From: Candidatus Omnitrophota bacterium
GTDB taxonomy: Bacteria > Omnitrophota > Gorgyraeia > JABMRG01
Assembly: GCA_028716165.1 (NCBI GenBank)
Contig: JAQUQI010000002.1
Location: forward strand, 183,829-247,828
DNA: 64,000 nt
Direction: 5' to 3'
Position numbers and translations under genes: made by a program. Each line of letters starts with the position of its first letter. Position 1 is the stretch's first letter. Below are positions 3,035 through 64,000 of the stretch, in pieces. The notes under the pieces were generated by a model that worked only from the letters and a program-made list of their open reading frames with translations, did not search any database and was not told the origin of the DNA.

Positions 3035-3075
3035 AGCTAAAAAGACAGCCAACAGCCCTATCAATTATATAAAAA

Positions 3076-4638: not shown

Positions 4639-4640
4639 TA

Positions 4641-30583: not shown

Positions 30584-31017
30584 TTTTTAATCAACCAGTT
30601 CTGTTTTTGCCACATCTTTTTTTTAGGCCCCGGCTTCGTGTCGTCATAGCCTAAAAGATGCAGTATGCCGTGGACGATACACAGAGAAAGCTCGCAGGGA
30701 TAGGGTTGTTTATACCGCGCGGCATTTTCTCTGACACGGACAGGGCATATGAATATATCGCCTAAATAACCGTCATAAAGCGGCCGGCAGGAACCACTAC
30801 GTTGCCGCTTATATGCCAGAGCTATAACGTCTGTCAGGCGGTCTTTTTTAAAAAAATTCCTGTTCAGTTTTTTAATAACCGCCGTATCCACAAAACTCAC
30901 GCTGATAAAACCGTTTTTGTCAACACCGAGCCTTTTAAGCGTGTTTAAGGCAAGTCTCCTTGAGGCCTTTAACGGCACAGGGCACAAGCTCTGGCCGTTA
31001 TGCAGTATGACTTTCAT
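30580..31017 (-). CDS. ybeY: Endoribonuclease YbeY
   Basis: 145 aa. HGILHLLGYDD zinc-binding motif. Confidence 0.85.
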   Translation of the reverse strand: MKVILHNGQSLCPVPLKASRRLALNTLKRLGVDKNGFISVSFVDTAVIKKLNRNFFKKDRLTDVIALAYKRQRSGSCRPLYDGYLGDIFICPVRVRENAARYKQPYPCELSLCIVHGILHLLGYDDTKPGPKKKMWQKQNWLIKK

Positions 31018-44169: not shown

Positions 44170-45635
44170 CTACGGCCGTTCATTTTTAAGCGTAGAGGCG
44201 AGATATTTATTGAAGTTTGAATCCATTCTTTCAACGCTGTTGGCATAGGCTTTGGTAAACGCCTTCTGCCAGGGCTTTATTACCTTTAATTCATAAAAAA
44301 ATCTTTTAAGTTTATACGGGCCGTATTTTTCATAAAGGTAAGAAAAAAACATCCTTGACTGAAGGTATGCCGCGGTAATGGCCTGGCGCGAATCTTTATA
44401 TGAGAACATACCGTCAATGAGCTCAAGGCTGAAGGGGCCGTTGGCCTTCATATACCCGGCGAGGAATACCCTGTCCTGGGCAGTTATGGCGGAATCAGGC
44501 TCATTAAACTGCGCGAAACCCTCGTTCAGCCAAACCGGTACATCAGCGCCTAAATTTAGATACAGGACGGCATGAGAATATTCATGAAACAGCAAACGCT
44601 TTAAATTTTTATCATCACGCGATATGTCCTGATACCTAAGGCGTATCTTACCGTCATAAAGGCCCTGCGTCCAGCTCGGCTGGTCCGTGGCCTGCTCAAA
44701 CTGGCCGTCATCATATATGATCACGGGTATAATCTCTTCGGAGGATAAACCATATTTATCGCGCAGGGCTTTTCTGGCCTCGTTTAAAATATTTAATATA
44801 ATGCCGGCGTATTCAGCTCCGATATCTTTGTCAAATCGTATCTTGAAATAACTCTTCGCCTTTGTGCCGAATCCGCTCTCAACCGGCCGCTCTCTTTCCA
44901 GCGCCTCCACGCGTTTTTTGATATCGGGGTTTTGCGGGTCAAGAGTATGGGCGCGTTTAAGATATTTCAGGGCATCGCCAAATTTGTCCTGATTGTAATA
45001 GAGATTACCGGCAACTATACAAGCCGCGGCGTCATTGGGCATAAGCGAAACAGCCTCAAGCGCCCTGGCCAGGGCCTTGTCATAGCGCTTATTTTTTTGA
45101 AGATAGCCGGAATAATTCAGCAATATAACATAAAGGTTTTTCTTTAATACATCATCAAGCGGCAGATATTTTAGCCCCTGCCTGATATTGTCAAGAGCTG
45201 ATTCGTATTCGTTGGAATTGGCAAGCTTTAGCGCGAAATTATTATAAAGCGCTGACAACTGCTTTCTGATATACTCATCATCAGGGGCTAGTTTAAAAGC
45301 GCGCAGGCTGTTCCCTATAGCCTCTTCGTCGCGGCCCTGCCGGGCATATACCGCGGCCATATTATGATAGGCATTGCTTAAATTTTTTTTAATCGTGACA
45401 TTTGCCGGTTCATTTTGCAGGGCATATTCAAAATAAGTTATCGCCTGCCTGAAATCATTATTGCGCATGCTTTCCCGGCCTTTTTTTGCAAAATCATCGG
45501 CTATGTCCGCACAGGCGGCAGAGGGCAAAAGAAAAACAGCAAAGGCCAGGCAAAAAGCCCTTAATAAAACAGCGGGGCGCGTATCACGCCGCCCCGCTGT
45601 TTTGCCATCTTGCATATGATGGGACTTGGAAAACA

Positions 45636-45636
<1 letters not shown>
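44170..45636 (-). CDS. Secreted TPR-repeat protein with C-terminal HExxH (putative metallopeptidase-like) domain
   Basis: 488 aa. Signal peptide ending SAACA, multiple TPR units, FHEYSHAVLY near the C-terminal third. Start codon overlaps the groEL stop (translational coupling). Confidence 0.5.
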
Positions 45637-48413: not shown

Positions 48414-48464
48414 AGTTCACCTCCTTCCTGTATCAGATTTCAAGTGAATACTCTATACTGTTTT

Positions 48465-48853
48465 ACTTGTCATTGCGAGTATTTTCGCTGTCATTCCGAG
48501 CGAAGCGAGGAATCTAATACTGACTTCACTCCCAGATCCTTCGCTAACGACTCGTGCCTCGCCTTCCGCCGCTCTGGATGACAGGCGTATGACGCTTGCC
48601 TCGCCTTCCGCCGCTCTGGATGACGCACGGGTCACTCCCAGATCCTTCGCGACCGAGGCGTGCTTTGCCTTCTGTCGCTCTGGATGACGCACGGGTCACT
48701 CCCAGATCCTTCGCTAACGACTCGTACCTCGCCTTCCGCCGCTCTGGATGACAGGCGTATGACGCTTGCCTCGCCTTCCGCCGCTCTGGATGACAGGCGG
48801 GTCACTTTGTCATTCAGAGGAGCGCCGAAGGCGCGACGAGGAATCTAATACTG
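48465..48853. repeat. Mosaic repeat array 11, immediately 3' of the giant gene
   Basis: Direct reading. Contains internal duplications: 48530-48600 resembles 48700-48790. ORFs 48453..48692, 48660..48848 and 48766..49065 (5' part) are repeat-derived. Confidence 0.85.
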
Positions 48854-48892
48854 CCGCTCCGGCCGACCCAATAACCGTATTTTTCTCCTTTT

Positions 48893-51800
48893 TTATACTG
48901 CCTGTTTTATCATATTGCCTATGCGCTCAATCGTCTCTCTGTCAACAGGCTTTATCTTTACCACGCCTTCAAGAGAATCGGCATTGGCAAACATATAACG
49001 CATCTCCTCATCAGAAATACCAATATCAATACCCGCATTTCTCAAATTCTCGGCAAACTGCCTAAACGGCATCTGGAATACAGCAAAGATAACCTGGACC
49101 GCCGTAACCATATTGTCCGCCGTCTCAAAGCCCTTCTCAACCTCAACATATCTTATATGTTCCGCGCGAATATCCACCATTTCACCGGCATCCGAATAGA
49201 CAATTGTAGCGGCATTTACCGGTTCAAGCCCGGCCACGCCCTTGGCTTTTACGCCGTAGGCGCCTAATAGCTTTATGGCATCATGGCTGTTATTGCCATA
49301 AACACTTATATTGAGCATATCCTGTTCTTCCTGCGGCAGATTATTTACGATAGCGCCTAATGTTATTGCCAATGATTCGGTTACGGTATTAGCTTCAAAC
49401 ACATAGGCATTGCCTGTTGCTATGTTCATATATTGAGGCTTTTCAATAGCGGCAATAACCAGCTTTGATATGGCAAGCACCATATCCTGCGTCAATTCGC
49501 CCTTGACTTCAAACTGGCTCATCCTGGGCTTGATTACCATTATGTCAAATATAGGATTGACAAATCCATTCCTAATGCCTTGGGGAAGGCCTTCTATATC
49601 GCTTAAATCCCTCTCCAGAGCCTCTATGGTTTCGCCCTTTCGCTTATTGATATCAATGGTTTTTGACAGTGCCGCAACAAGTTCCTGTCTCTCGCTGGGA
49701 TCTATTATCCGCTGTTTTACCAGATCAAGGTTACCCATTATTATGCCGAGATCTTCATAAAGCTTTTTGACCTGCTTTATTGTAACGCCAAGATAATCAG
49801 CCTGCGCGCCAAAAGGATCACTGCCCGCTCTTGCCGCGGCTATACCAGCCAGTATTGAAGATAGTATTGCGGCGCCATTACTGCCGAACAGGCCTAATGC
49901 CTCAATAAGCAATACAGGCATCTGAATCCTCTCGCCCAATTCGGTTATGCCTAATCCGGCAAAACCATCATGAGGCTTATTAGACGAGAGAACAAGGTCA
50001 ACATTATTATCTTTTATAATGCCGGCTATCCGTGAAGCAATAAGCGGGTCAAAGCCTGCCAAGGCGTCCTGCGCGCTTACTATGCCTGCCGACGCCTGCT
50101 TAGCTGTCGGGATTGCGGCTGACGCTGCTTTATTGGTTAGCGAAGCTAATAGTTCAGAATCAAGCATTTTCTCAATACCCGCTATCTCATTTGCCAGTTG
50201 CGCTACTTCATCAGGCGTCAAATTCCCTTTTGTTTTTGCAATAAGACCGTCAATATTAATATTCATCGCTTGGAGTATATTCTTATTATTATTAAGTTCC
50301 GCCGCGCGGCTCTCTAACGCGAATTTGGCTATAAGATTATATATTTTATCTTTGAGCCCTACAAAGTCCGGGGTTTCTTCCGCCATCTCTTTTGCTATAG
50401 CATCAGCAATGTCAGCGCGCAGAGACTCATTACCTTCTATAATTTCAATATCATAAGGAAGCGGTCTTGTGTTATTGTTACTGCTTCTTTGAGCCATGCT
50501 ATTTGTAATCTTTTCAACTACCCGCTTCCAGTCAGTTATCAATGATCTCTTGCCGGTTGCGTCGTCTTTATCCGTGAAATCCCTGATATGGCCTGCCAGG
50601 CCAGTCTTGCCTGTCATCAGGCTCGCGTTCCTTATAAGGCCGCTTACTTCCTGCTTGAGATCAGCTATCTCTTTTTCCTCTAAACTGTATAATATCTTTT
50701 CAAGATTATAGTCAATGGCAGTATAATTGCGCAATTCCTCGGCAATCTGCTGGAAGGGTTTGGATATATCGTCCGTATGCGAAAGCTCATGGATGAGTGT
50801 TTCAAATATAAGATATGATGCCGCTCTCTTGCCTTTTGATGTATCAAGTGACATCATACCTGACATGGTCCTGACCCATTGATCTGAAAGCTCTATTGTA
50901 GCTAGGCTATTGCCTTCTTCCTCAAAGGTTACCCTAAGGTTTACATCCTTGTCGGCAATACTGCCGATATCATTGCGATTGACCCTCCTTATAACAATTC
51001 CTCCCTGGTTGTTGTCATCTCTATAGCCGGAGCCGTATTTGGCCGCGTGCATAATAGCATCAAAGAGTTTCTGCAAGTCAGGATTATCTTTTATAAGCTC
51101 CTTTAATATATTAACGGCATCCTCTGTGCCTGCCATTATAAGCTCTATCAGCTCCACGTCTTTTTCACTTCCATCCTTGACTACAACAAACTTATCGTTT
51201 TCGTCAATAGTGAGCTTGATGCCATTACCGGCTGATTTTGTAAAATCGCTGTAAAGGTCAAGTTCGCTGTTGGGTATCGGGATAGGTCTAGTAGATAATG
51301 CCGGACCTTCTTTAGAATATACATCTTCAGCCAGCTCATGCACATCAGTATATGATAAAGGCGCGGCGCCTGTTTCAGCAAGGAAAAGTTTCTTGACTAT
51401 GGCTACAAGCACTTCTATTTCGGTAGGTGTTAACGTGATCTTGCCCACAGCCTTTGCCCACGCTTTGATATATTCCTCCGCCTTGTCAGCCATTCCCATA
51501 CTATCATAGGCGCCTGCATCATTGATATTATCTTTTTGAGAATAAAAGTCTACCATCAGCCTGGCCGCTTTTTCAAGGTCTTTAATGCCCGGCTTATAAC
51601 CAGCTACTGCCTGGGAACGAATTTCATCCATTGCTTTGCCGATATCAGGTAAAAACACGCATTCAAGGGCTATTTTTACTTCATCACTAAAGTTTAAGCT
51701 ATCTATCGCAGATAAGAGTTTATCTCTGCCGGCCGTGATATTATTAAAGAAGTCGTGCTTTATTATGCCCTTTTGGTTAAGCTCAATAAGCCTGTTCTTT

Positions 51801-54800
51801 ATGGCATCCCTGGCATGGTTAAGCCTGTATTCGGGGTCATCCGAGCTTATTAATAGAGCGCTCGCGCCGTGAGTACATGTTACTATGACAGCAAGGTCGC
51901 TAATCTCAAGTTTGAAATCCGTAAACACGCTCTGAATGGCGGAAACCTCGCGGGCTATTAATATAAGGTTTTCAAGGTCAAAACCCGTAAGCCTGGATAT
52001 CATACCAGCGCGGTTGGCAATAGCCAGCACAATATCAAGTATGCCGGCGCCTTGTTTCTTACTGTCATCAAGCAAAAGCCCGGCCAATGCCTGCCTGTCA
52101 GGATCCTCGGGCTTTAAACCAAAGAAACGGTTCTTTATGGTATTTGCTATATTAAATAATATCATACCGCTTGGGGTAAGCCTATCATTTGAGATCATGT
52201 TATTAGCGGTTAAAAACTTTATAAATTCGTCTACTTCGGATTGAGGCATTCCGGGTTCATCGTTTTCTCCTTCGGATGACAGCAATGTCTTGGCCGCGTC
52301 AACTGTTAGAGTGCCGCTTTGCAAGTCATCCGTCTGCGGGGCATTGGGTATTTTGGCCAAAGCATCCTGGCCATGCTGATTGATCTTGCCAGCTTCTATC
52401 AGGATTTTGGAATATACAGCACCGGCAGTATCGGCGAGCATATAATCCACAAGCCTCCTGCTTGTAAGATAGATGTCCTTCCAGCTTTGAGCGTCAATTA
52501 ATGACATAGGCCCCTGCTCGGAAGTATAAATATCCTGATTGTATTCGTCAAGTTTTACCTTCAAATCATTAATCGCGTTCTGTGCCGTATCAGTTTTTAC
52601 TTTCTCTAATTCTTGTATTATGTTCTGAAGCACCTGCCTGGCAATCTCGGAATTTTTGGTAAATATATTTTTCAGGATTTCGCCGGCATCAGCTTCAGGA
52701 CTGTATCTCAAGTTGACCAACGCGTCAGCAGGGTCTATCTCCAAAAGCTTGCGGAACTCTTTATCTATAATATCTCCTTCTTTTGTGCCTGGTTTGTATG
52801 TAAGCAATAAATCTTTCAGGCCCTCTTTTAAATAACCCTGGGCTATATCAGCTATGATAAAGTAATTGGTCGCGGAAACCTCCATAGCGCTCTTGACCTT
52901 GAAAGCGAATTGAGCGGCTTCAAGCATTGCCTCTCCCTTAAGTTTGTCAAAATTATCAAATTTCCCTGCTTTGAAAACTTCCAATAGTATTTGCGCCTGC
53001 GTATCGTATTTATCACAGCCTAATATATTGCTTATTATATCAATATGTTTAGCCGCGTATGCAAGGCGTTCTTTAACTATACCTTCATTCATATATACGA
53101 CCCTTACCGCCTGGTCTGTGAACGGATTGCGAAAAACCCTGTGCAGAGCCTGCTTAAGCAGGTCTTCTCCGAGATAATCAGCTACTATGTGAATATCAAT
53201 GTCTTTGACATAATTCAATCCGACTATGCCCGCCTGGTTGGTAAATACTATATGGCCCAGGTGAGCTTTATCGGCGATCTCATTAGTGTTTTCAGTCATT
53301 GCGAGAATACTATATTCAGAGCCCATTATATATTCCGCGATTTTATCAGCATTCTTATCAATATCGTCAAACCATGTGATGCAATCTTCCAGCAATTTTA
53401 TCAATTCTTTTGACTCATGATTCTTTATCGCCGCTTCTTGAAGTTGTGTAAATTTAACTTTTAGCTTCTTCGCATAATCATCCTTGTGATCTTTCAGGCG
53501 ATTAATCAGCTTTTCCTTGACTGTTTTTATCAGGCCCTCCATTTGCGCCTGAGGAGCATAATTCAGGACGGCGCCGCGGGATACAAGCGATTCCAATATG
53601 CCCGCGGACATATATTCAAACAACTCTTTGTCAGTTTGATAAAGCGAAAGAAGATGCAGGACCTTAGGCATACCTACTATTTCCTTTGCATCAAAATCCA
53701 TAATAGCATTACTAATCATGTCCTTCACTTCGGATAATTCTTTTACAAATTGGAATCCTAACTTTTCAAACTTAGGGTTATCCATACGCTCATAATCAAA
53801 TTCAAGGCCTGTCAAAGGGCCAAGTATGGCCACTATTTCAGTATAGGTTCCGGAACCGCCGGCCATATCGGCATCACGGTGCATCCTGAATATCTCGCGA
53901 AGTGTTGACTGCATACTGGTACGGCTGACGGTAAGACCTTTAGGATCTACCAGCTTGCCTTCTCCTTCTTTCCAGGCAAGCGCTATTACATAATTAATAT
54001 CCTGAAATACGCTTCCCGGACTTGCCGTGCCTGTTGAAACAGGGCCTATCTTCTGGTTTTTGGCGTCAATAAAGTAATTTTCGTCCTTGACATGTTTTAT
54101 GGCAAGTATGACAGACTGTATCTCCGATTCCTTATAGCCCAGTTCAGTGAGCGCGGCCAATGCGGCTATATTTAAGAATATCTTGCCTGTATCCTTGTTA
54201 TAATACATGTACATATCGTGATCACCATTATGCTTTCGAAAATCGTCCAATTTAGTCAATTCTGCTATCTTTATCTCTTTACCATCCTTGGTAGTATAGC
54301 CTGCTTTTGACAGAGCCGTAGTGATAATATTTAAAAGAGCTTTTATCTTGTTCACGCGTTCTTCTGAGACCTTATCGTCGCTTTGTTCAGACACATTGTA
54401 TGTCTCTCTTATCTTTATCACACTGTCAAACTCATCTATCCTTAAAAGGTTTGTGGCTTCTACAGCACTTCTTAGGCCCTCATAGCCCATGGATGATAGC
54501 ATGGTCTGCAAATGGCCCCTTGCAGTCCTGCTCATAGCAATTATGACGTGAGGATCTTTTAAATCCGATATAAACTTATTCAGCGCGTCATCATGAGTGC
54601 CAACATCAAGCGATTTCATTTTCTCCATATATTCATCGCCGCTTTTAAGTTTTAAACCAAAGGCATTTAAAACGCCAAGGGGGCTTTCATTAAGGCCTTG
54701 CGCCGACTTGCTAAGATATTTTTTAATGGCCTCTTCGCTTTCAAGTATAAACATGGCGCGAAAATCATTGCCTAATACCAGGCTCTTGGCCGCCATCTCA

Positions 54801-57800
54801 ACAGCAAAGGCAAGGGTCTTGCCGCCGCTCATGCCAAGACTGGAGAATTTGCCTTCCCAGAGGCCGAATATAAATTCTTGCTGGGCCGGCCATTTTTTAG
54901 CGGGATCTTCAATAGCAAGAAATTGAGAAACAGCCAAAGACAATGCCAAAGCATCCTTGGAATCAATTGCCCTGCCCATACTGTCAAGACGTATAAGACC
55001 ACTCTTGGCTATTGAAGCCACCGTAGGCTTTAAGGCTAACTGTAATCCCTCCAGCTTATCTTTATTTTCCTGGTAAACACCGATTTTATTGATTAATTCA
55101 AGGCGGCCATTGCTCAATTTAGCCTGCTCGGCGGGGTCTGCAGTATTTTTCAAGAGCTCGTCTATTTTGTTAACGCCATCCTCCGATGCTTTTAACACTC
55201 TGTTAAGATAATCAATGCCATGACCCTTGTTGTCTTCTAAACATTTTTTTAACACTTCAAATCCCTTGCTCATCCTATCTGCCTCTGCCGCAAAACCATG
55301 GATTTTTTTAAAGTTATTAATTTTACGCTCAATATCTTTTATAATATTATCATCAATAATACCATCTTTAATAATACCATCTTTTACTAACGCGTCTATT
55401 TTCTTTGAAATATCGCGAATTTCCTTATAATTATCTTCCAACCATTTAACCAATAAATCCCTTTTTGCTTTTATCTCTTCTTCATCTTTGGATGTTATGC
55501 TGAAAGGAGACGCCTTTAAGAACCTGGCCACCGCGCTCTTTTTGTCCGCTCCAAGTTGAGCGTACATTTGCAAATTATCCTTCATTTCCTGAAGCTTTTC
55601 GTAATCTCCATCCACGGCCGTCTTAAGCATACTAAACGGCGTGTTTGTTTTTGACGCGGCCTTGATCGTGCCCGCGATGGCCCGCCATACCTGCATATCC
55701 GACAAGCTTAAGTGGCCCGCAAGCCATGCCAACTTGGAAACATTAGGCACAGCTACGCCGTTATTGAGAAATGCCGACAAGACCTTTTCTGAAAGCGCCG
55801 GCACCAGTTTAACGACAGCTACTATATTATCGGCAAGCGCCTGGTCTGCCCTCGTTGACAAGCGTATATCGTTGATTATGCTTAAAGCAAGTTCCGCCTT
55901 CACTGTATCCAGCCCGAGATTTTCTAACTTGCCTGACTGGCCGGAGACGGCAACTATTGCCTCAAGATTCAAAATTATATCTTTAAACAGGATCCTTTCT
56001 GATGCGCCAATCGGATCTAATTTACCTTTATACTCTGAATTGTATAGGCTCTTTACAGCCTTTGCTATGTTCGGCATAGCATTTTTTATGCTATCTATAG
56101 AGTCGGAAACCTTAAAATCAATCATCCTGTTTATAAGGTTCACTGCCGCGAACACCGCCTTGTAATCAACGGTAAAGTCTGCATTATTAAACAATGACAC
56201 AAAACCGCTAACGGTATTGTCTATAGAAGAAGAATCAAATACTGCGCCAAAACTTTGGGCAAACGCGCTCATAACAGAAGGCACAAACTCCAGCCATCCC
56301 TCCTGGCCCATATTCCATGATATTTGGGTCGCGGACTCAAGCATATTCGTAAGCGCGGCCTGTTTAACCCGGACGAGGAGATTGGATTCAGTAATAATCT
56401 CCGCCCATTTGGCATAGGTGTCGCGGATCAAGATTTTTGAATCGTCAATCGTTTTTTTATTATAGTTTGGATTTAAGCTCAATCCAAGCATGGCAGAGCT
56501 TAACAGGCTTGAGGCGCGCATTGTCGCGTCCATCAGTGTATCGAACGTATCCGGGTTATTATTGGCAGGATCATAAACAAACTCGTTTAATCGTTTGTAT
56601 AAAGACAAGGTTTTTTCAAAGATCATTTCATTGAAATCAGTATATTGACTCTTAAGGGGCATCATATCTTTTATGCTATAAAGGCCGCTTATCACGGCTG
56701 TGACATCGGTTTCACTAAGATTATCCGCGGAAATGTTTGTTATAATATTGTAGATTTTCTCCGCCGCGTTAACTTTTACCTGGGTTATAAAGCCTATTTG
56801 CTTATTATCCAGGCCGATCTTGCTTATTTCAACATCATGTAATACGCTTAATGTCTGGCTTAAAGCGGTGATCTTCTCCGAATCTGTGATTTGAACATTA
56901 CTAATTACTGCTTGAGCAATGCCCGTCACCTTGCTAACGGCATGTTTAAGAATCGCATTGTCATCAACCGTGTTTATTACATACTGCAAGCCGTTAAGTA
57001 CGCTTACGGAACCAGCATCGCCCAGTTGGCCAATATCAATTTTGTTTATGGTTTTATCTATATAATTAACCAAATTGCTCCTAAATTTGGCATCAAAGAA
57101 ATTGTCTGATTCAATTAATACGCGCGCGATAATATCAAGATTATACCCATTGCTGATGTCAGGGGTCGTCATAGCGTTTATGGCTATCTGCTTCAAATAT
57201 TGATGGAATTCGCTATCCAAAGAATTATCGCTAAGGACTTTATAAACTTCATCCATCAAAAATAGGTTTGTCAAAGACGGCAAAAACTGCCCATCATTTG
57301 CCAATTTACTAAATTCTACCTTTAACAGACTGCGCGCGTCAGTTTGAGTCTGCTCATTCATTGATTTTGGTACATTGAGGGCGCGAACAAGTGTCATCAT
57401 AGACTGATTGTATTCAGACGTATTAGCCGTAACGCTATGCCCTCTGAAATAATTTAAAGCGGTATTAATATTTTCTGCAGTCAGGTTAATAGCATTGCCC
57501 GTGAGCTGAATCTCTTTTTGGAAAGTGCCCAAATCGGGTATTATATTGTTGAAGACGGTTTTTAAACCTTCATTTTTAAATACCGGATTATTTATAACAC
57601 CGTTTAAACCGTCGGCTGATACTCCAATCGCATTTAAGTTTAGAAGATGGCCGTGATTTACGGTCTGGGCAGTGCTAAACAAGCTGCGTGAATTAAGCAG
57701 CTTCATACTCATCTTTGCCTGCGTGTTTATCGTATACATATCAGCGGCATATTGCATGAAACTGTTGTTTCCATAAATTTCAGAAAAGTTTAATTTAAAT

Positions 57801-60800
57801 GCCTCGGACTGGGAGTCTATTCGTTGTAAATTGTTCAAGAAATAATTTGTCTGCGCTAGCAAGCCCGCAAGCTGAATCCTTTGTGCGTCTGTCGCATTGC
57901 CGAATACTTCTTTATAGTTATCCAATAAAACGCCGGTTGCATGTAAAACGCGTGTCAAATTTTGGCCTAATTTCATTTTGCCGAATTCCTTGCCAAGAGC
58001 CTTCATAATACTATTTCTATCAGCGCCAGAGATACCCGCAAACTGGGTGATCACGCCCAATACTTGGTCAACCCCGCTTAAAGCGTTTATATAAGCGCTT
58101 GGATTCATATTGTATGACGTGTTGCCGTCCATGCTTAAAAATTCAACGACAAACTCCTGCGTATTGTCAGGCAAGCCTGAAAGAAACATCGTTTGCAAAA
58201 GAGGCTCAACCAATGCCTCTTCACACACCCCGCCAAGGCCTCTGCTGATAAAAGCGAAGAATTTACTCTTAAAGGAATCGGCCGCGCTGCCTGTGACAAA
58301 ACTACCGAATTTTAAAATGTTCTTGCCTATAAATTTCATGCCCTCATACGAATATTTTAAAAAGAATGATCCCGCGCTTTTAATACCGAAGGAAAAAAGT
58401 GTAAGGAATGGATTAGTTGCACTCCCCATTAGAGCATTAATCGCGGTAATTGAAGTAAGCGATTGCGCATGCGATTTCACAAACTGAACAGCCTTGCCTG
58501 TCCAAGTATTAAATGAACTCTTGAGCGGGGTTATAATTTTGCTTTGCATCCATGCGCCCCCCATATTCATGACAGGGCCTAAAAGAGAGAAAAAGCCGAT
58601 AAATGCCAGGCCTTCAGGCGTGCCAACATGATTTAGTATACTGCTATATGGCGAACCACTGCCCATATAATGCGTCGTATTAAGTATATCCTTCAAAAAG
58701 CCCGGACCCATTCTGCTTACGCTATCCTGATCAAGACCGGCAAGATTTAGGCCCAAGCTAATAGCTTTTGACATAGTATGTGTCATGAAACCTAAGCCTA
58801 CAGTCATATTATATGCTGCTGCAGGAATCGTGCCTAAATAGGTAACTAAGGGTTTTATAAACCGGCCGGCAGTCGAAACAACGCTGGATACATTAGCGCT
58901 AATGAATGCGAGCTTGGCGGCACCTAAACTACCGAGGTATCCCCATGTTAATATATCAACCACTATTTCGCCTATATCCAGAACATTACCATACCAGCCC
59001 CCCCAGCCCTGGTTTTTTCTATAGAGCGTGTCAATACTCGCATAGTTTCCTAATTCGCTTGACTTTGCCCACGAACCTAAAGTAAAAATATTGCCGAATG
59101 TCACGATCAACGAGTCCACAACCCATCTTACAGAATTCCCGATTCTGTTTACCCACAAAGCGGTAGGGCTAAAAGTATCAACTGCATTATAGCTTAGCTT
59201 TGAAGGATTAAAATAACCTGTCTGTGTTATCATTTCACTGCCATACCAGTAATTAACTTTATTTTGGGCATACCCTATAAGCGAATTATCAAAATAAAAG
59301 GTATCGTAATCCTCAGGCCCGAAGACACTATTACTTCCTCTTGGAGTTGATTCCAGAGAAGATACATAATGCCCATTTTTCCAAGTGTATTCAAATTTTA
59401 TAGGCTTGCCCCAGCCATCTGAACCGCTAGCCATAAAGCCTTCTAATGCGCCATTTTTAATATGTGTATAGCTATTAATTCCGTTATAGCCTACACTGGC
59501 GGTGACAGATGTTGTTTTTGAACTGGCAGTAAAACTAAGGTTGTCGTTTTGGCCTAAATTGGAATACCATGTCCAATTGACATTATCTGGATGTAACCCT
59601 GTTTGATGAGTTATGTCCTGTATAGAGGTATCAACTCTCGCCTTGTGCTCACTGGTTAAAGAACTGTATGGCACTACTTTATCAGCGTTTATAAAGGAAT
59701 GGTTAACGCCCATAGTAAGAACGATTGGCATGCCATCGTAAAGTGTGCCGGCCGACGGCAGTCCATATCCAAGCAAGCTGGAGAAAATTTCGGCGTCAGC
59801 AGAAGTGAGAGATCCTGCAAGAGTAAAACTCCACGAAACATCATCAAACAACTGGGTGGCATTTGCTCCATTAGGCCTGACGTATTCATATCTTAATCCA
59901 TAGTTAAGGCTCTTATCTGATGCAAATCCAAATTGCCTATTATTCAGGTTAAATATCATCTGGTCCAGCTCGTTTGTCTTTTTTGGAATCCCCGCCCCTA
60001 TTGCTTGGATTTCGGCCACAGCATATGGATTGGAGGAGATATCATGTGAGGTATTTAATTGTTCTTCTTGCATCAAAGCTTGAAGCTCATTTGTGTCTCG
60101 TGTAATCTCACGAGTCAAATCGTCTATTTGTTTTTGATTACTTACTCTATACGCTTCAGTCACTTTTCCAATCACGCCCATACCTTCTTCGCTTAACCCC
60201 GGCACATCGTATGTGCCATTAAGTATGCCTTGGACAATGTCAGAATCCATATCTATCAAATGCCCGCCTTGCTTAATCCAGCCCTGATTAATCGCAATCT
60301 CGTATAAACCTGTAATTACATTTTCGCCTCCATCATTTAATGCTAGATTTGTCAACAATACTCCAAGGGCCATTGGGTACATACCTGCTTTACCTCCGGC
60401 AATTGAAGCGGGCACAATCCTGAAGCGTTCTATACCGTGCTCTCTATAATAAATAGGCTCATAATTGTCAAGAGTCAAATCGTCATGCGCTTTTTTAGCC
60501 ACGACAATCTTGCCGGTTTCTTCTGCTGTGAAAGAATTGCTGTAAGCTGTTAAGGCATTCGTTACGTTGTCGTGGGCTATACTATAATTGTAAATACACT
60601 CTTTTATAGTACTAACTTTGTCTTTAATACGTGTATCTTTATTAATAAAATCTTTCGCGAATAACTTAAAGCCTTCTTCGCAATCAAATGGAGCAAACGC
60701 TTCTTTGGCTTTTACAACATTCTGGCGTAAGGTAGCAATGTTTTGTGGAATGTCGCCAATTATGCCAATATTATTTGGCATCTTCGTAACATCTTTTAAG

Positions 60801-63800
60801 GCATTATAAACTTCTATTTGGGCCTCAACTTTGCCAATTTTGCTTTCCTTTGTAGCTGTAATATATTTTTCTTGTGGACTACAAACTTCGTCTAATGTGT
60901 AACCAATTAAATCAACCAAGCGAGTGTTTGCTTGTTCTAATGAAGTAAAATTATTTTCTTCCAAGAACGAGCTCATTACGCCTGACCCGAGCGGATCGCC
61001 ATACTCTTTTTTGAATGTAGTATAACCGGTTAAGGGATTGTCGTATTTCACGCGTATTGCATCAGCCTTGGCAAAAATAACTTGGGACGCATTAGTAATA
61101 TTCGTAGTCAAAGTTTCAATATTTTTTCTGATGTCTTTGCACGTCGCGTCATTTAGAATAATTGTAGCATACAAGCTTCCCAATTCGCTTCCCGACGCAT
61201 ATTGCTCATCAGGGCCTAATGAAGAGCCATAATTGTGCCCAGTAATCTCAAAAATCCTTTGCTTCGCCGCATCAGGGTCCATTCCATTATCCCTTATGAA
61301 ATCAGTTTTTAATCCATTAAGACTCACGTCTTGTTTCAGATAATCAGCTTTAAAGTCTTCAAAGGTCATATTTTTCCAAGTTTCAAGTTGGCTAATATAG
61401 CCCTTTAGCTTCCCTTCATCTGTCTCAGTCATTTTATTCTTTTGGGTTGTAATTGTTTTATATTGGGGGTTGGCATTATATGCTGCTTCGCTTAAAATCT
61501 TTCCTACGGCAGTGTCGTACGCAGCCTTCGCTGTACCAGTAGCTGCTTTAGCATTTTCCCATGAACTATTGGCTGTACTAGCCTCACCTTCTGCCGTTAA
61601 CAGATTACCGGTTTTTATTCTTAGATCATTTTCTAAGCCGGCGATCTTTTCATTACCGCTGTACGAATAAGAGCCATAATATTCATTTCGATACGACTCA
61701 GATTCATAGTATTTAACATCCTTATCAATCTGTTTTACCCGTTCGTCTTTTATGCCAATCTGTTCTTCTACACGTTGTAATTCTTTTTCCTTTAATGAAA
61801 GAGCATTAAGACTCGATATCTTGGTTTCCAAATCAGCTATATCTGATACCAAAGCAGTATATGCTGCTTGATTCGGAAGAATTTTTTCCATTGCACTTTT
61901 AATGTTGGACTGCTTGATTTTTGCTTGATCAATGCCATATTGTGTCTGCAATCTGTTTTTTTCATGCGTCAGGTTAACTAAGTCTTGCTGGGCTGTAGTT
62001 ATATTATTTTGGAATGTATCCTTTATGGCTTTATTTTTTGGATCGTCCCGATATCCTTCATTCATTGTAATTCGTGTTTTGATTTTGGCAAAATCCGCCT
62101 CTTTAGGAAATACATAAGTTAATTCATAAGCTTTTTTGCTGTCATTTGTCCCTGCTGCGAAATATGCATTGCTAAGTTTATTATACTCATCTCTTTTGTC
62201 CTTTTTAGTTTTTAATTCACTTTCTAAACTCTCCATATTCTTTCCGGCTATCCCAGACATGCTATTTATATCGCTCAAGAGGCTTACCTTATCAGTTCTT
62301 AGCTTTTGTAGTTCTGCTTGAAGGCCCCTTCTTTCAGTATACAATGGTGTTAGAATATCTTGCAAATGCGTTGCAAAAGCACTACTCCTAACTGTTGTCT
62401 TTGCATTAGTAACCTGAGTTTCAAGGGATCCTTTTTCATATTCAAGTGTTTTCACTTTATCATTAGCAGTGTTTAGAGCCGTTAACGCTATAGCTTCAGC
62501 AACAACAGCGGCATCCCACGCTGTTTTCAAACCTTCTATACCGAGAGAAGATTCTAAACTGCTTTTGTATGATGAATAATTGATTCTTGTTTTTGTTATT
62601 TCTGTTGTCGGTAAATTTTGCTTTTCTAATTCTATCTCTGCTTCTAACCCATTATATTTAGATTGAAGTACCCAATTATCAGGAGTATTTATGTCTACAT
62701 TATAATAATAAGTATCCAATGCCCCAGTGAGCTTGCTAAGCTCTGCTTCTAATCTTGTTTTTTCACCACCAGCACCTTTTACAGCCGCAGTTTCGGCATC
62801 CGTAAGATTTCCACGCGCGGTTATTAGATTATTAATCCAACCATTGATAATTGTCAAATCTATGGACTCATCTATTCCCACCGTTACACCGCCGGAAGTG
62901 TATTCTGGAACACTAATGCCAGCTCTAGAAAGTGCTCTCTTAAGATTTTCCACGCCGCTCCCGATCCCTTTTAGATAACTCGTATAAGCATTAGAAATTT
63001 GAGTTTCATCTGTCGAGTGTTGCTTAGTAGACAAATATCCATCTATTATCGTCTGAGCCTCTTCTACATTATTTAAGTTTGATGTTCTTATTGATGAGAT
63101 TTTACTATCAATAGCCTCATCTAAGTCTTTCTGCGCCGTAGAACTGGCGCCTTTTAGGCTATCCCATGCGTCTTCTAGAAATACACCAGAACTATTCGTT
63201 ATTTGAGAATAATAAAGCCGTTCGTACAATACCGTGTACTCTCCTATTTCTATATTCAAATTATCATAGTTTGTTTTATAATTATCATACACGTTTTTAT
63301 CAACAAAAGATTTGACATCTATAAATTTTGGTACCTTATAAGGAGCGCCATAGCTGTCTATGCCCTGACCGGATAAGTCAGTTAACGCGGTTTCAACATT
63401 ATTGTGCAGTGTTAAAGTCTCCTGCCATTCCTCGTAAAGGCTTCTCTTCTTTTCTTCATACGCCTTTTTCGCATCGGTTATAGTCTTCGCCGGTTGGATG
63501 CATTGGACGGTTAAGTCCGCAAGTTCTTCCTGAGGCATAATATGCTCTGTAATCAGGTCCGTCAATGACGCAATATCCTGCGATACAAACAACCCGAGAG
63601 TATCCCAATCAGTTTGTACTTTATACTCACCCTTATCGCTGTCATAAGTAATGAATATTTTTGAGAAAATATCGCCTTCTCGGATGTCAGAGTTTAATGA
63701 CTTGATTACGTCGTCTTGAATAGTTTCAATTATATTATAAAACGCATTTATGGTGGCTTCCGCTACAGTAGGCTGTTCACCATCCGCAATGTTCCTCTTT

Positions 63801-64000
63801 TCCTCAATCTTACCATTTAAAATAAGCTTTATAGTGTTATCTACGCGGATAAAGCCTGACTGGAGCTGTATGTCTCCATTATTTAAAACAGTGAATTTGA
63901 TACCGCCGACAAGCTCTCCTTTTTTGCCGTCTATTTCAAATTCTTTAGTATTGGCTAACAATTGAAAAGAGCCGTCTCCTGTTAATGCGGCGCTTATCGT
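48893..64000 (-). CDS. Giant protein, 5' end truncated by the window edge. At least 5,035 codons are in the window.
   Basis: Single uninterrupted minus-strand ORF. The ORF track starts it at a TTG (63961), but the frame stays open through 64000 (…TISAALTGDGSFQ-LLANTKEF…), so the N-terminus lies outside the window. Tripartite composition: residues ~1-1350 charged/helical; ~1350-2150 W/Y/F/G/S/T/N-rich with hydrophobic segments; ~2150-5022 acidic helical. Isolated HELSH motif at nt 50777-50791. No recognisable catalytic family. Confidence 0.8.
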   Translation of the reverse strand, partial: TISAALTGDGSFQLLANTKEFEIDGKKGELVGGIKFTVLNNGDIQLQSGFIRVDNTIKLILNGKIEEKRNIADGEQPTVAEATINAFYNIIETIQDDVIKSLNSDIREGDIFSKIFITYDSDKGEYKVQTDWDTLGLFVSQDIASLTDLITEHIMPQEELADLTVQCIQPAKTITDAKKAYEEKKRSLYEEWQETLTLHNNVETALTDLSGQGIDSYGAPYKVPKFIDVKSFVDKNVYDNYKTNYDNLNIEIGEYTVLYERLYYSQITNSSGVFLEDAWDSLKGASSTAQKDLDEAIDSKISSIRTSNLNNVEEAQTIIDGYLSTKQHSTDETQISNAYTSYLKGIGSGVENLKRALSRAGISVPEYTSGGVTVGIDESIDLTIINGWINNLITARGNLTDAETAAVKGAGGEKTRLEAELSKLTGALDTYYYNVDINTPDNWVLQSKYNGLEAEIELEKQNLPTTEITKTRINYSSYKSSLESSLGIEGLKTAWDAAVVAEAIALTALNTANDKVKTLEYEKGSLETQVTNAKTTVRSSAFATHLQDILTPLYTERRGLQAELQKLRTDKVSLLSDINSMSGIAGKNMESLESELKTKKDKRDEYNKLSNAYFAAGTNDSKKAYELTYVFPKEADFAKIKTRITMNEGYRDDPKNKAIKDTFQNNITTAQQDLVNLTHEKNRLQTQYGIDQAKIKQSNIKSAMEKILPNQAAYTALVSDIADLETKISSLNALSLKEKELQRVEEQIGIKDERVKQIDKDVKYYESESYRNEYYGSYSYSGNEKIAGLENDLRIKTGNLLTAEGEASTANSSWENAKAATGTAKAAYDTAVGKILSEAAYNANPQYKTITTQKNKMTETDEGKLKGYISQLETWKNMTFEDFKADYLKQDVSLNGLKTDFIRDNGMDPDAAKQRIFEITGHNYGSSLGPDEQYASGSELGSLYATIILNDATCKDIRKNIETLTTNITNASQVIFAKADAIRVKYDNPLTGYTTFKKEYGDPLGSGVMSSFLEENNFTSLEQANTRLVDLIGYTLDEVCSPQEKYITATKESKIGKVEAQIEVYNALKDVTKMPNNIGIIGDIPQNIATLRQNVVKAKEAFAPFDCEEGFKLFAKDFINKDTRIKDKVSTIKECIYNYSIAHDNVTNALTAYSNSFTAEETGKIVVAKKAHDDLTLDNYEPIYYREHGIERFRIVPASIAGGKAGMYPMALGVLLTNLALNDGGENVITGLYEIAINQGWIKQGGHLIDMDSDIVQGILNGTYDVPGLSEEGMGVIGKVTEAYRVSNQKQIDDLTREITRDTNELQALMQEEQLNTSHDISSNPYAVAEIQAIGAGIPKKTNELDQMIFNLNNRQFGFASDKSLNYGLRYEYVRPNGANATQLFDDVSWSFTLAGSLTSADAEIFSSLLGYGLPSAGTLYDGMPIVLTMGVNHSFINADKVVPYSSLTSEHKARVDTSIQDITHQTGLHPDNVNWTWYSNLGQNDNLSFTASSKTTSVTASVGYNGINSYTHIKNGALEGFMASGSDGWGKPIKFEYTWKNGHYVSSLESTPRGSNSVFGPEDYDTFYFDNSLIGYAQNKVNYWYGSEMITQTGYFNPSKLSYNAVDTFSPTALWVNRIGNSVRWVVDSLIVTFGNIFTLGSWAKSSELGNYASIDTLYRKNQGWGGWYGNVLDIGEIVVDILTWGYLGSLGAAKLAFISANVSSVVSTAGRFIKPLVTYLGTIPAAAYNMTVGLGFMTHTMSKAISLGLNLAGLDQDSVSRMGPGFLKDILNTTHYMGSGSPYSSILNHVGTPEGLAFIGFFSLLGPVMNMGGAWMQSKIITPLKSSFNTWTGKAVQFVKSHAQSLTSITAINALMGSATNPFLTLFSFGIKSAGSFFLKYSYEGMKFIGKNILKFGSFVTGSAADSFKSKFFAFISRGLGGVCEEALVEPLLQTMFLSGLPDNTQEFVVEFLSMDGNTSYNMNPSAYINALSGVDQVLGVITQFAGISGADRNSIMKALGKEFGKMKLGQNLTRVLHATGVLLDNYKEVFGNATDAQRIQLAGLLAQTNYFLNNLQRIDSQSEAFKLNFSEIYGNNSFMQYAADMYTINTQAKMSMKLLNSRSLFSTAQTVNHGHLLNLNAIGVSADGLNGVINNPVFKNEGLKTVFNNIIPDLGTFQKEIQLTGNAINLTAENINTALNYFRGHSVTANTSEYNQSMMTLVRALNVPKSMNEQTQTDARSLLKVEFSKLANDGQFLPSLTNLFLMDEVYKVLSDNSLDSEFHQYLKQIAINAMTTPDISNGYNLDIIARVLIESDNFFDAKFRSNLVNYIDKTINKIDIGQLGDAGSVSVLNGLQYVINTVDDNAILKHAVSKVTGIAQAVISNVQITDSEKITALSQTLSVLHDVEISKIGLDNKQIGFITQVKVNAAEKIYNIITNISADNLSETDVTAVISGLYSIKDMMPLKSQYTDFNEMIFEKTLSLYKRLNEFVYDPANNNPDTFDTLMDATMRASSLLSSAMLGLSLNPNYNKKTIDDSKILIRDTYAKWAEIITESNLLVRVKQAALTNMLESATQISWNMGQEGWLEFVPSVMSAFAQSFGAVFDSSSIDNTVSGFVSLFNNADFTVDYKAVFAAVNLINRMIDFKVSDSIDSIKNAMPNIAKAVKSLYNSEYKGKLDPIGASERILFKDIILNLEAIVAVSGQSGKLENLGLDTVKAELALSIINDIRLSTRADQALADNIVAVVKLVPALSEKVLSAFLNNGVAVPNVSKLAWLAGHLSLSDMQVWRAIAGTIKAASKTNTPFSMLKTAVDGDYEKLQEMKDNLQMYAQLGADKKSAVARFLKASPFSITSKDEEEIKAKRDLLVKWLEDNYKEIRDISKKIDALVKDGIIKDGIIDDNIIKDIERKINNFKKIHGFAAEADRMSKGFEVLKKCLEDNKGHGIDYLNRVLKASEDGVNKIDELLKNTADPAEQAKLSNGRLELINKIGVYQENKDKLEGLQLALKPTVASIAKSGLIRLDSMGRAIDSKDALALSLAVSQFLAIEDPAKKWPAQQEFIFGLWEGKFSSLGMSGGKTLAFAVEMAAKSLVLGNDFRAMFILESEEAIKKYLSKSAQGLNESPLGVLNAFGLKLKSGDEYMEKMKSLDVGTHDDALNKFISDLKDPHVIIAMSRTARGHLQTMLSSMGYEGLRSAVEATNLLRIDEFDSVIKIRETYNVSEQSDDKVSEERVNKIKALLNIITTALSKAGYTTKDGKEIKIAELTKLDDFRKHNGDHDMYMYYNKDTGKIFLNIAALAALTELGYKESEIQSVILAIKHVKDENYFIDAKNQKIGPVSTGTASPGSVFQDINYVIALAWKEGEGKLVDPKGLTVSRTSMQSTLREIFRMHRDADMAGGSGTYTEIVAILGPLTGLEFDYERMDNPKFEKLGFQFVKELSEVKDMISNAIMDFDAKEIVGMPKVLHLLSLYQTDKELFEYMSAGILESLVSRGAVLNYAPQAQMEGLIKTVKEKLINRLKDHKDDYAKKLKVKFTQLQEAAIKNHESKELIKLLEDCITWFDDIDKNADKIAEYIMGSEYSILAMTENTNEIADKAHLGHIVFTNQAGIVGLNYVKDIDIHIVADYLGEDLLKQALHRVFRNPFTDQAVRVVYMNEGIVKERLAYAAKHIDIISNILGCDKYDTQAQILLEVFKAGKFDNFDKLKGEAMLEAAQFAFKVKSAMEVSATNYFIIADIAQGYLKEGLKDLLLTYKPGTKEGDIIDKEFRKLLEIDPADALVNLRYSPEADAGEILKNIFTKNSEIARQVLQNIIQELEKVKTDTAQNAINDLKVKLDEYNQDIYTSEQGPMSLIDAQSWKDIYLTSRRLVDYMLADTAGAVYSKILIEAGKINQHGQDALAKIPNAPQTDDLQSGTLTVDAAKTLLSSEGENDEPGMPQSEVDEFIKFLTANNMISNDRLTPSGMILFNIANTIKNRFFGLKPEDPDRQALAGLLLDDSKKQGAGILDIVLAIANRAGMISRLTGFDLENLILIAREVSAIQSVFTDFKLEISDLAVIVTCTHGASALLISSDDPEYRLNHARDAIKNRLIELNQKGIIKHDFFNNITAGRDKLLSAIDSLNFSDEVKIALECVFLPDIGKAMDEIRSQAVAGYKPGIKDLEKAARLMVDFYSQKDNINDAGAYDSMGMADKAEEYIKAWAKAVGKITLTPTEIEVLVAIVKKLFLAETGAAPLSYTDVHELAEDVYSKEGPALSTRPIPIPNSELDLYSDFTKSAGNGIKLTIDENDKFVVVKDGSEKDVELIELIMAGTEDAVNILKELIKDNPDLQKLFDAIMHAAKYGSGYRDDNNQGGIVIRRVNRNDIGSIADKDVNLRVTFEEEGNSLATIELSDQWVRTMSGMMSLDTSKGKRAASYLIFETLIHELSHTDDISKPFQQIAEELRNYTAIDYNLEKILYSLEEKEIADLKQEVSGLIRNASLMTGKTGLAGHIRDFTDKDDATGKRSLITDWKRVVEKITNSMAQRSSNNNTRPLPYDIEIIEGNESLRADIADAIAKEMAEETPDFVGLKDKIYNLIAKFALESRAAELNNNKNILQAMNINIDGLIAKTKGNLTPDEVAQLANEIAGIEKMLDSELLASLTNKAASAAIPTAKQASAGIVSAQDALAGFDPLIASRIAGIIKDNNVDLVLSSNKPHDGFAGLGITELGERIQMPVLLIEALGLFGSNGAAILSSILAGIAAARAGSDPFGAQADYLGVTIKQVKKLYEDLGIIMGNLDLVKQRIIDPSERQELVAALSKTIDINKRKGETIEALERDLSDIEGLPQGIRNGFVNPIFDIMVIKPRMSQFEVKGELTQDMVLAISKLVIAAIEKPQYMNIATGNAYVFEANTVTESLAITLGAIVNNLPQEEQDMLNISVYGNNSHDAIKLLGAYGVKAKGVAGLEPVNAATIVYSDAGEMVDIRAEHIRYVEVEKGFETADNMVTAVQVIFAVFQMPFRQFAENLRNAGIDIGISDEEMRYMFANADSLEGVVKIKPVDRETIERIGNMIKQAV

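Follow-up and report, generated by a model that had tools for sequence, protein, structure and literature searches.

Giant genes of the Omnitrophota and other bacteria of the Planctomycetes-Verrucomicrobia-Chlamydiae (PVC) group form a recognised, functionally unsolved class, and their published products, of 10 to 150 thousand amino acids (kaa), are very hard to study. The giant genes of Omnitrophota are reported to encode divergent SecA domains and numerous transmembrane (TM) regions, to have a small pilZ gene downstream and to lie next to an upstream secretion locus that resembles type II secretion systems or type IV pili (T2SS/T4P); their SecA domains show ‘exceedingly long branch lengths’ and are described as devoid of scaffold and wing domains (bioRxiv 10.1101/2023.11.21.568195, West-Roberts et al. 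2023). The same study names two subtypes, Archaeovorin, with glycosyltransferase (GT), methyltransferase (MTase), glycoside hydrolase (GH), NUDIX and HEAT domains, and a Dockerin-type, which combines dockerin with TSP3 (bioRxiv 10.1101/2023.11.21.568195). The published sets cover proteins above 30 kaa (bioRxiv 10.1101/2023.11.21.568195) and of at least 10 kaa (bioRxiv 10.64898/2026.06.07.730766); the latter, a 2026 catalogue of Omnitrophota proteins, includes a SecA_DEAD architecture cluster of 20 proteins, and 137 of its 916 entries have no domain match (bioRxiv 10.64898/2026.06.07.730766). Here, a giant gene of at least 5,035 codons is described, which occupies one end of a 64,000-nucleotide (nt) stretch of contig JAQUQI010000002.1 from a Candidatus Omnitrophota bacterium; this stretch is referred to as the window, and amino acid (aa) numbers count from its edge. 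Judged by alignment and domain content, the encoded protein appears to stand outside both named subtypes, as a compact, Pfam-dark relative of the known PVC giants.

Resemblances to the Omnitrophota giants are manifold: the protein comes from the PVC superphylum and probably from the same phylum, is very large and mostly unannotatable, contains an embedded, divergent SecA-type ATPase and hydrophobic regions that are TM-like in relatives, diverges rapidly and is followed immediately by a pilZ gene; a Pfam-dark class also exists in the catalogue. The embedded SecA-type domain is recognised here by structure and motif layout only, and not by the Pfam model that West-Roberts et al. used; neither SecA_DEAD nor SecA_PP_bind is matched in Pfam. 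Other differences concern size (at least 5.0 kaa are visible here and at least 4.3-7.3 kaa in the relatives, all cut at the 5' side) and domain content, since Pfam finds no GT, HEAT, MTase, GH, NUDIX, dockerin or TSP3 domain in this protein, L003, P0010, P0015, P0011, P0013 or P0009. The modelled motor has a long helix after its second nucleotide-binding domain (NBD2), whereas the published domains are described as lacking scaffold and wing; the HExxH block, the C-terminal block and the groESL synteny found here are not mentioned for Omnitrophota giants in the portions available. The locus is interesting, not unprecedented, and a preliminary description that called it the least explainable element of the window overstated the case, given a recoverable family and the published pattern. 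It extends the giant-gene syntax of divergent SecA-type motor, hydrophobic block and downstream pilZ to a smaller or more compact family.

Minus-strand frame 0 is free of stop codons over 5,035 codons, from nt 64000 to the stop codon at 48893-48895, whereas the other frames of that strand reach no more than 889 and 763 codons without a stop. An in-frame start codon first appears at 63961, yet the frame stays open up to the window edge; the gene therefore starts outside the window, beyond nt 64000. From aa 836 to 5035, the protein is colinear with homologues from independent assemblies, which supports contiguity in that part; aa 1-835 have no homologue in any database searched. Other datasets hold one fragment that is 99 % identical and one contig that is 100 % identical to this sequence, and two 2-kb contigs carry identical PilZ/GroES genes; JGI 3300037067 and SRR22315506 are datasets in which this strain is present. 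Because of the 5,035 stop-free codons, the colinear independent homologues and a ratio of nonsynonymous to synonymous rates (omega) well below 1, the open reading frame (ORF) is a genuine gene, intact and maintained by selection, whose product is non-repetitive and has at least 5,035 aa. An artefact, that is, a chimeric mis-assembly or a decaying pseudogene still open by chance, would be in line with the deviating codon usage and GC content at third codon positions (GC3) of the first 2,000 codons, with the missing database coverage of aa 1-835 and with the breakage of every relative at a contig end inside its N-terminal region. It is nevertheless scarcely credible: a stop-free stretch of 15.1 kb at ~42 % GC is beyond chance, given that no other minus-strand frame exceeds 889 codons, the identical or nearly identical sequences come from other datasets, and the catalytic motifs are invariant. 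The open frame, the colinear homologues and omega led to its rejection.

The preliminary description had seen a single giant, non-repetitive gene, open at the window edge, and the computations bear this out: no authentic in-frame stop was seen, self-comparison by BLASTP gave 0 off-diagonal matches, and Tandem Repeats Finder (TRF) reported no relevant DNA repeats, the sole array inside the ORF measuring 51 nt. A repeat adhesin, RTX or MARTX protein was rejected on these grounds and on the absence of Pfam repeat families, and no well-known repeat family (RTX, adhesin) accounts for the whole protein, which has no YD repeats within the window. The three composition zones described from the letters are likewise real: K+E amounts to 0.14-0.19 in aa 1-1250; aa 1251-2000 combine a K+E of 0.07-0.08 with W+Y+F up to 0.15 and G+S+T+N of 0.34-0.37; and aa 2250-5035 are net acidic with A+I+L+V of 0.30-0.40. 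The two peptides quoted as examples are present near the positions given for them, at aa 1663-1699 (nt 58904-59014) and aa 1799-1818 (nt 58547-58606), and HELSH lies exactly where it was reported. Of the coiled-coil N-terminus, only patches stand, at aa 401-600 and 801-1200 by a crude heptad score, which also marks aa 2601-2800, and not a continuous, extended coiled coil. The impression of an AT-rich 5' part agrees with windowed values: GC is 0.37-0.38 at 60.5-64 kb versus 0.43-0.45 at 49-52.5 kb, and GC3 rises from 0.31-0.34 in codons 1-1000 (0.31-0.36 through the first 2,000) to 0.43-0.46 in codons 2500-5035, the neighbouring genes having 0.50. Relative synonymous codon usage (RSCU) correlates with that of the neighbours at r = 0.25-0.27 over the first 2,000 codons and at 0.75-0.85 over the last 2,000. 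Replacement of the N-terminal half by recombination, relaxed codon selection or amino acid composition could each produce this gradient.

When aa 3001-4200 were compared exhaustively with 1.84 billion cluster representatives by HMMER, 15 family matches came up at E < 1e-3, most of the strong ones being giant themselves: P0002 (5,328 aa; 41 % identity), P0004 (7,016 aa), P0005 (6,691 aa), P0006 (5,010 aa), P0007 (5,879 aa) and the distant relative P0008 (7,348 aa); P0001 (99 % identical), P0003 and P0010 are fragments. One family locus (L003) occurs among 185,579 species-representative genomes and one (L004) was found in JGI metagenomes; every family protein is a singleton cluster on a single contig. 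L004, P0010 and P0003 represent one organism, the closest relative. Recovered members measure between 4.3 and 7.3 kaa, each length being a minimum. BLASTP against the family delimits four colinear blocks (aa 1369-1965, 3000-4160, 4215-4545 and 4560-5035), and the family core, as read from these alignments, comprises four colinear modules: a TM-like central block, a predicted superfamily 2 (SF2) ATPase, an HExxH(+E) block and a C-terminal domain. The family is invisible to Pfam, NCBIfam, PHROGs and PADLOC: none of these gave a significant match in six overlapping 1,000-aa segments of the giant protein, nor did the domain libraries in the relatives scanned likewise. Family comparison narrows the problem to four conserved modules of ~0.3-0.9 kaa each, which are individually expressible.

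In A2, an alignment of ten family members across the ~900-aa second module (aa 3000-3900), the G-K-T of Walker A, the D-E of DEFD and G-x-S-G-T are invariant, and among closer relatives the entire LRIDEFD is; by these intact catalytic motifs, the block is identified as an SF2 DEAD-type ATPase. An AlphaFold2 model built from A2 has a mean predicted local distance difference test score (pLDDT) of 68.6, with 80-90 in two RecA-like cores. It includes a 45-residue helix after NBD2 (model residues 691-735), further helical segments beyond, and beta-strands and helices within the ~170-aa insertion between motifs II and III, a candidate counterpart of the SecA domain at this position. SecA ranks first in both structure searches of the model: Foldseek against the PDB gave SecA of M. 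tuberculosis (1nl3) at E = 7e-9, followed by those of T. maritima (4ys0, 1e-7) and E. coli (2fsf, 2e-4), with alignments of ~940 columns, and the best match other than SecA was RecQL5 at 5e-4.

The hallmark of SecA is its preprotein-crosslinking domain, a large insertion that separates motif II from motif III. The order of motifs is colinear between the motor and E. coli SecA, whose reference sequence was confirmed against the PDB (1,475 bits; colinear alignment to 6s0k). Motif II and the return motif lie 137 residues apart in both proteins (VFQDINYVIALAWKE here, RWSDGLHQAVEAKE in SecA); the distance is 35 residues from the return motif to the pre-III motif (25 in SecA), 20 from there to motif III (18 in SecA) and 15 from motif VI to the R..Y motif (14 in SecA), whereas motifs III and V are separated by 206 residues as compared to 115. 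The NBD2 motifs resemble TNxAGxG and QxxGRxxR, their SecA counterparts, matched by eye, being TNMAGRGTD, QLRGRSGRQG and SRFYLS; Walker A GKT, DExD and a motif III of the form G-x-[ST]-G-T complete the likeness. Unlike SecA, a free protein of ~900 aa, the motor is embedded ~3,000 aa into a giant polypeptide, is divergent beyond the detection limits of Pfam, HMMER and hhalign and has no recognisable wing domain, C-terminal linker or zinc finger. The structure match and the motif layout make a SecA-type ancestry of the motor block likely. If the motor moves polypeptide, it would represent a second, SecYEG-independent use of the SecA fold.

Alternatively, the protein could be a cytoplasmic giant enzyme or scaffold acting on nucleic acids, with an ordinary SF2 helicase or translocase, belonging for example to defence or genome maintenance, whose likeness to SecA reflects the common RecA-like fold. 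This would fit the sole PDB profile match, the Walker-A region of a DEAD-box helicase, as well as the weak hhalign result against SecA and a BFVD fold search of the motor model, which yielded generic SF2 matches, namely helicases and DUF3638-type P-loop proteins. Such an assignment seems very unlikely in view of the first rank of SecA in both structure searches, with a Foldseek E-value ~10^5-fold better than that of the best helicase, and of a large insertion exactly between motifs II and III that is flanked by SecA-like motifs. PADLOC gives no defence match, and Pfam and NCBIfam find no nucleic-acid-binding or nuclease domain; relatives have hydrophobic segments of TM grade, SecA-type domains are published for PVC giant proteins, and one relative (P0006) bears an additional, canonical SecA domain. 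In P0006, the divergent motor is located at aa 2401-3187 and a canonical SecA NBD1 fragment at aa 4912-5007; the latter scores 32 bits against E. coli SecA residues 22-118 and is cut by the contig end.

Around the motor, the protein can be divided into at least six distinguishable segments on the basis of the alignments, and the tripartite architecture initially proposed is too coarse. Within the N-terminal variable region, aa 836-1340 align to the closest relative only, at 33-45 % identity. The central conserved block consists of a part rich in aromatic residues, Gly, Ser and Thr, followed by moderately hydrophobic helices; its family motifs are RMxPG...QMGSGS and, further on, SRxLGGVxEEAxxEP...FLxWLPDxxQEFxVEFxDxLDG. 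The relatives P0002, P0005 and L003 have extra inserts of 50-90 hydrophobic, TM-like residues in this block, and Kyte-Doolittle (KD) maxima of the block are 2.0-2.6 in P0002 and P0004 (up to 2.6 in P0004); the N-terminal region of L003 contains hydrophobic segments up to KD 3.1. Other hydrophobic peaks of the present protein, of KD 1.6, are at aa 4033 and aa 4696. Pfam, NCBIfam and PHROGs recognise no domain in the linker that connects the central block to the motor (aa 1966-2999).

The C-terminal part had been described as acidic and helical with a lone HELSH; acidity and motif stand, but the region is not featureless, as it comprises the motor, the HExxH block and the C-terminal domain. In the HExxH block, six homologues share, besides the H, E and H of HELSH, the invariant residues GS.A.K (aa 4346-4351), D4386, E4400 and E4422. 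The last of these follows the second His of HELSH by 14 residues and might serve as the third zinc ligand, as in a gluzincin. Sequence searches of Pfam and the PDB gave no match for the block, which may, by its family-invariant motif, constitute a putative zincin-like metallopeptidase module. In P0002, ~350 aa that the protein of this window lacks are inserted between the HExxH block and the C-terminal block; judged by eye, ~aa 4830-4900 of P0002 contain a motif resembling GNAT acetyltransferases, VAVDPAYQRKSGMGRLLMLEAL. The C-terminal block begins with a marginal HAMP-like stretch (~aa 4730-4810), continues with an alpha/beta-patterned domain and closes with the conserved tail I.IKPVD....I......QA, directly after which the stop codon follows. 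Its profile matches a HAMP-EnvZ chimera in the PDB marginally (E = 0.008). A hydrophobic helix, VLLIEALGLFGSNGAAILSSILAGIAA (KD 1.6; window 50100-49850, ~aa 4696-4810), precedes the HAMP-like stretch; a TM-HAMP reading of aa 4696-4810 is doubtful because this helix carries charged residues in relatives.

The genes downstream on the minus strand encode PilZ, GroES, GroEL (all three identified by Pfam, which confirms the neighbours named initially), TPR/Peptidase_MA, IMPDH-like and DnaE proteins. The order giant gene, PilZ, GroES/GroEL, TPR/Peptidase_MA, IMPDH-like and, in some cases, DnaE, with 0-4 genes inserted between PilZ and GroES/GroEL, recurs in L003, L004 and L005; comparison of related genomes, which had been suggested as a check, thus found PilZ-groESL beside the giant gene in four genomes, including this one. 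By this synteny, the giant gene occupies the same chromosomal position in all four. The PilZ gene is directly downstream of the giant gene in 4/4 loci, and in L003 its start codon follows the stop codon of the giant gene after only 20 nt. The PilZ motifs, RxxxR (RKYPR) and D/NxSxxG (DLGAGG), are intact and conserved in L003 and L004 (alignment A6). On these sequence comparisons, PilZ appears to be a conserved partner and groESL a conserved synteny anchor, and the PilZ protein is the probable sensor of cyclic di-GMP (c-di-GMP) acting with the giant protein. At L006 (34077-42047), P0008 is followed ~2 kb downstream by a second very large gene, which encodes at least 3,475 aa and extends past the end of the locus; a PilZ gene is not recorded between the two, an arrangement unlike that of the close subfamily.

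Housekeeping genes (PPDK, GlyS, AspS, HisS and DnaE) make up the rest of the window. Phage and conjugative polyvalent proteins similarly combine an SF2 ATPase and a zincin-type HExxH in one large polypeptide; unlike these, the giant gene resides in a chromosomal housekeeping context in four genomes. No relatives were found among viral contigs (IMG/VR), INPHARED phages or PLSDB plasmids, and the absence of a PHROGs match adds to the reasons for rejecting a mobile element or polyvalent protein. A defence system was rejected for want of a PADLOC match.

Conservation of position is accompanied by fast divergence of the protein itself. Between the window and the closest relative (L004), GroEL is 98.2 %, GroES 96.8 % and PilZ 90.6 % identical, whereas the giant proteins share 31-50 % over aa 836-3000 and 48-67 % over aa 3000-5035. 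GroEL is 95.0 % identical to that of L005 and 91.0 % to that of L003, versus ~26-31 % for the giant protein in both comparisons. The number of nonsynonymous changes per site (dN; Nei-Gojobori, against L004) is 0.011 for GroEL, 0.055 for PilZ and 0.20-0.65 for the giant gene; omega is ~0.2-0.4 as compared to 0.01-0.06 in the neighbours, values that are indicative only, synonymous divergence (dS) being near saturation. The giant protein thus changes 20-60 times faster than GroEL, and fastest in its N-terminal half; the gene is orthologous and selectively maintained yet hypervariable at a fixed position. Near-identical flanks beside a giant gene of 26-67 % identity point to strong diversifying pressure, which would be expected if the protein makes contact with other cells. 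The TPR + Peptidase_MA gene (window 44170-45636) is fast-evolving too: identity to its counterparts in L003 and L005 is 47-48 %, as opposed to 89-95 % for GroEL and the IMPDH-like gene on its flanks. PilZ is 44-48 % identical to the L003 and L005 proteins. The TPR/Peptidase_MA and PilZ genes might co-evolve with the giant gene.

Fast evolution at a conserved locus is also expected of proteins of conflict or contact, and a polymorphic-toxin or Rhs/Tc-like delivery protein would account for it: an N-terminal shell and the central block would encapsulate cargo and take it across the membrane, much as the hydrophobic delivery regions of large bacterial toxins do, the ATPase would unfold the cargo and push it into a target cell, and the zincin would be self-processing or toxic. 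Several relatives do possess YD-like repeats N-terminal of the shared core (P0004, P0005, L003 and L005), marginal central hydrophobicity is typical of conditionally inserting domains more than of constitutive TM helices, and HExxH never varies within the family. In the 5,035 aa in view, however, there are no YD repeats (a loose YD pattern finds one chance match here as opposed to 10-13 in P0004 and P0005), and neither in this protein nor in the relatives scanned does Pfam match an RHS or toxin family. The polarity of variation is reversed as well: Rhs and Tc proteins have their variable toxin at the C-terminus, whereas here the C-terminal half is conserved and the N-terminal half variable. 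The next gene encodes PilZ and not a small immunity-like protein, and the window holds no genes for type VI secretion system or Tc partners. Such a delivery protein is, on balance, unlikely.

Favoured with reservation is a surface machine that would be anchored in the membrane, carry its own SecA-type motor and be controlled by c-di-GMP. In this machine, the giant protein would be membrane-associated and located at the cell surface, as proposed for the larger Omnitrophota giants. The central hydrophobic block may anchor in, or insert into, the cytoplasmic membrane; the variable N-terminal part, presumed to be exposed, would be a fast-diversifying end for contact with or adhesion to other cells, YD/RHS-like in relatives but helical in this protein. 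The cytoplasm would house the conserved C-terminal half. There, the SecA-derived motor may spend ATP on threading polypeptide across the membrane, whether its own N-terminal part, once translated, a second copy of the protein or a partner; the zincin may process the giant protein or its cargo, and the adjacent PilZ protein may couple the activity of the machine to c-di-GMP levels. Topology, substrate, zincin activity and the interaction between PilZ and the giant protein are all proposals.

Several observations weigh against the surface machine or against the SecA-type ancestry of its motor. The motor is C-terminal to the part presumed to be exported and could not act co-translationally on its own chain. 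Its SecA-like character finds no echo at the level of sequence searches: no Pfam or NCBIfam SecA match appears at E <= 1 in the giant protein, phmmer of aa 3001-3800 against the PDB found nothing, the only PDB match of the A2 profile is the Walker-A region of DDX18 (0.026), and hhalign of A2 against E. coli SecA gives a probability of 10.7 %, in the Walker-A region only. The central block was initially taken as hydrophobic or membrane-inserted; it is separately conserved and TM-like in relatives but marginal in the protein at hand, the most hydrophobic central 19-mer reaching only KD 1.49. An AlphaFold2 model of the central, HExxH and C-terminal blocks, computed for a concatenated query (aa 1562-1965 + aa 4240-5035), had a mean pLDDT of 42, the HExxH block itself ~45-50, and was not interpreted. 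The N-terminus is absent from the window, and with it signal peptide, anchor and true size are out of view. Finally, the adjacency of PilZ could be plain synteny among related genomes.

A more far-reaching version of the surface machine is speculative and rather unlikely: the four modules and PilZ would form a compact, self-contained export or cell-contact machine, in which one polypeptide unites a SecA-type motor, the conduit that the motor uses and an interchangeable N-terminal payload, either helical or an RHS-like shell. Should this be true, PVC bacteria would have a mode of secretion or injection that has so far escaped recognition, and the 5-7 kaa family would be its minimal tractable version and a key to the function of the Omnitrophota giants of 30-150 kaa.

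Table 1. Segments and motifs of the giant gene and the adjacent PilZ gene; positions refer to the window.
Feature	Residues (aa)	Position (nt)	Strand	Basis or remarks
Giant ORF		48893..64000	-	5,035 codons + stop at 48893-48895; frame open at window edge
N-terminal variable region	1-1340	59981..64000	-	K/E/T/N-rich, AT-rich, GC3 0.31-0.36
Central conserved block	1369-1965	58106..59896	-	BLASTP to P0002, P0005, P0006, P0010, L003
Poorly conserved linker	1966-2999	55004..58105	-	31-39 % identity to closest relative
SecA-like SF2 ATPase motor block (predicted)	3000-3900	52301..55003	-	NBD1 + inserted domain, NBD2, long helix after
Walker A G-K-T, within GMSGGKTLAF	3060-3062	54815..54823	-	Invariant in both family alignments (A2, A5)
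Walker B / motif II DEFD	3189-3192	54425..54436	-	D, E invariant in A2
~170-aa insertion between motifs II and III	3193-3360	53921..54424	-	Ends in VFQDINYVIALAWKE; SecA counterpart RWSDGLHQAVEAKE
Motif III-like GGSGT, preceded by TSMQSTLREIF	3381-3385	53846..53860	-	Compare SecA TLASITFQNYF...GMTGTA
NBD2 motifs V/VI: TNQAGIVGLN, QALHRVFR, RVVYM	3587-3637	53090..53242	-	Family conservation + spacing
Conserved helical region after motor	3901-4214	51359..52300	-	62-67 % identity to closest relative
HExxH block (putative zincin-like)	4215-4545	50366..51358	-	Alignment of six homologues + BLASTP
HELSH	4404-4408	50777-50791	-	H, E, H invariant in six homologues
C-terminal conserved block	4560-5035	48896..50323	-	Family alignment
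PilZ-domain protein, 128 aa		48027..48413	-	First gene downstream; Pfam PF07238, E = 2e-7

No family member has a verified N-terminus. The giant frames of relatives (L003, L005 and L007, which bears P0002) are open to a contig end or scaffold gap on their 5' side, and P0010 is annotated as ‘partial’, on a contig hardly longer than the gene. The N-terminal modules of relatives differ: P0004, P0005, L003 and L005 have YD/RHS-like repeats, P0002 has tandem units of another kind; the JGI product name of P0004 is ‘YD repeat-containing protein’. At the open ends, repeat-like 5' sequence is seen, with YD-type motifs in L003 (1-229) and L005 (1-198) and duplicated units of ~200 aa in P0002 (L007 1-1591). 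Assemblies seem to break systematically in repetitive N-terminal regions, and the public lengths of family members would then be underestimates. As to taxonomy, database labels assign P0010 and P0006 to Candidatus Omnitrophota/Omnitrophica, P0007 to Chlamydiota and L003 to an uncultured Planctomycetia. The labels of L003 (Planctomycetia) and of the L004 organism (Omnitrophota, via P0010) conflict despite GroEL identities of 91-98 %; at least one of them is probably imprecise because identities of this order are unlikely between different phyla. All of the labels fall within the PVC superphylum, which is a safe assignment, and Omnitrophota is the most probable phylum.

Two further genes of the window have signalling or envelope functions, a 7TM-receptor HD-hydrolase (7TMR-HDED/7TM-7TMR_HD/HD; 31014-33269) and an alginate-export-type porin (14192-15502); for neither is a tie to the giant gene established. 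The intergenic region between the giant gene and PilZ (48414-48892) is GC-rich. In it, a 64-nt unit occurs five times, flanked by a 17-nt direct repeat, CGAGGAATCTAATACTG, at 48506 and 48837. A core of these units, GTCATCCAGAGCGGCGGAAGGCGAGG, occurs 11 times in the window with at most 3 mismatches (0 expected); further elements are at positions 257, 955, 4703, 16382, 16511, 25982 and 26107, always near intergenic sites, and the units look like a dispersed element family similar to repetitive extragenic palindromes (REP) or miniature inverted-repeat transposable elements (MITE). A 79-aa ‘gene’ called by JGI inside the region of 64-nt units (L002 371-610) is probably spurious.

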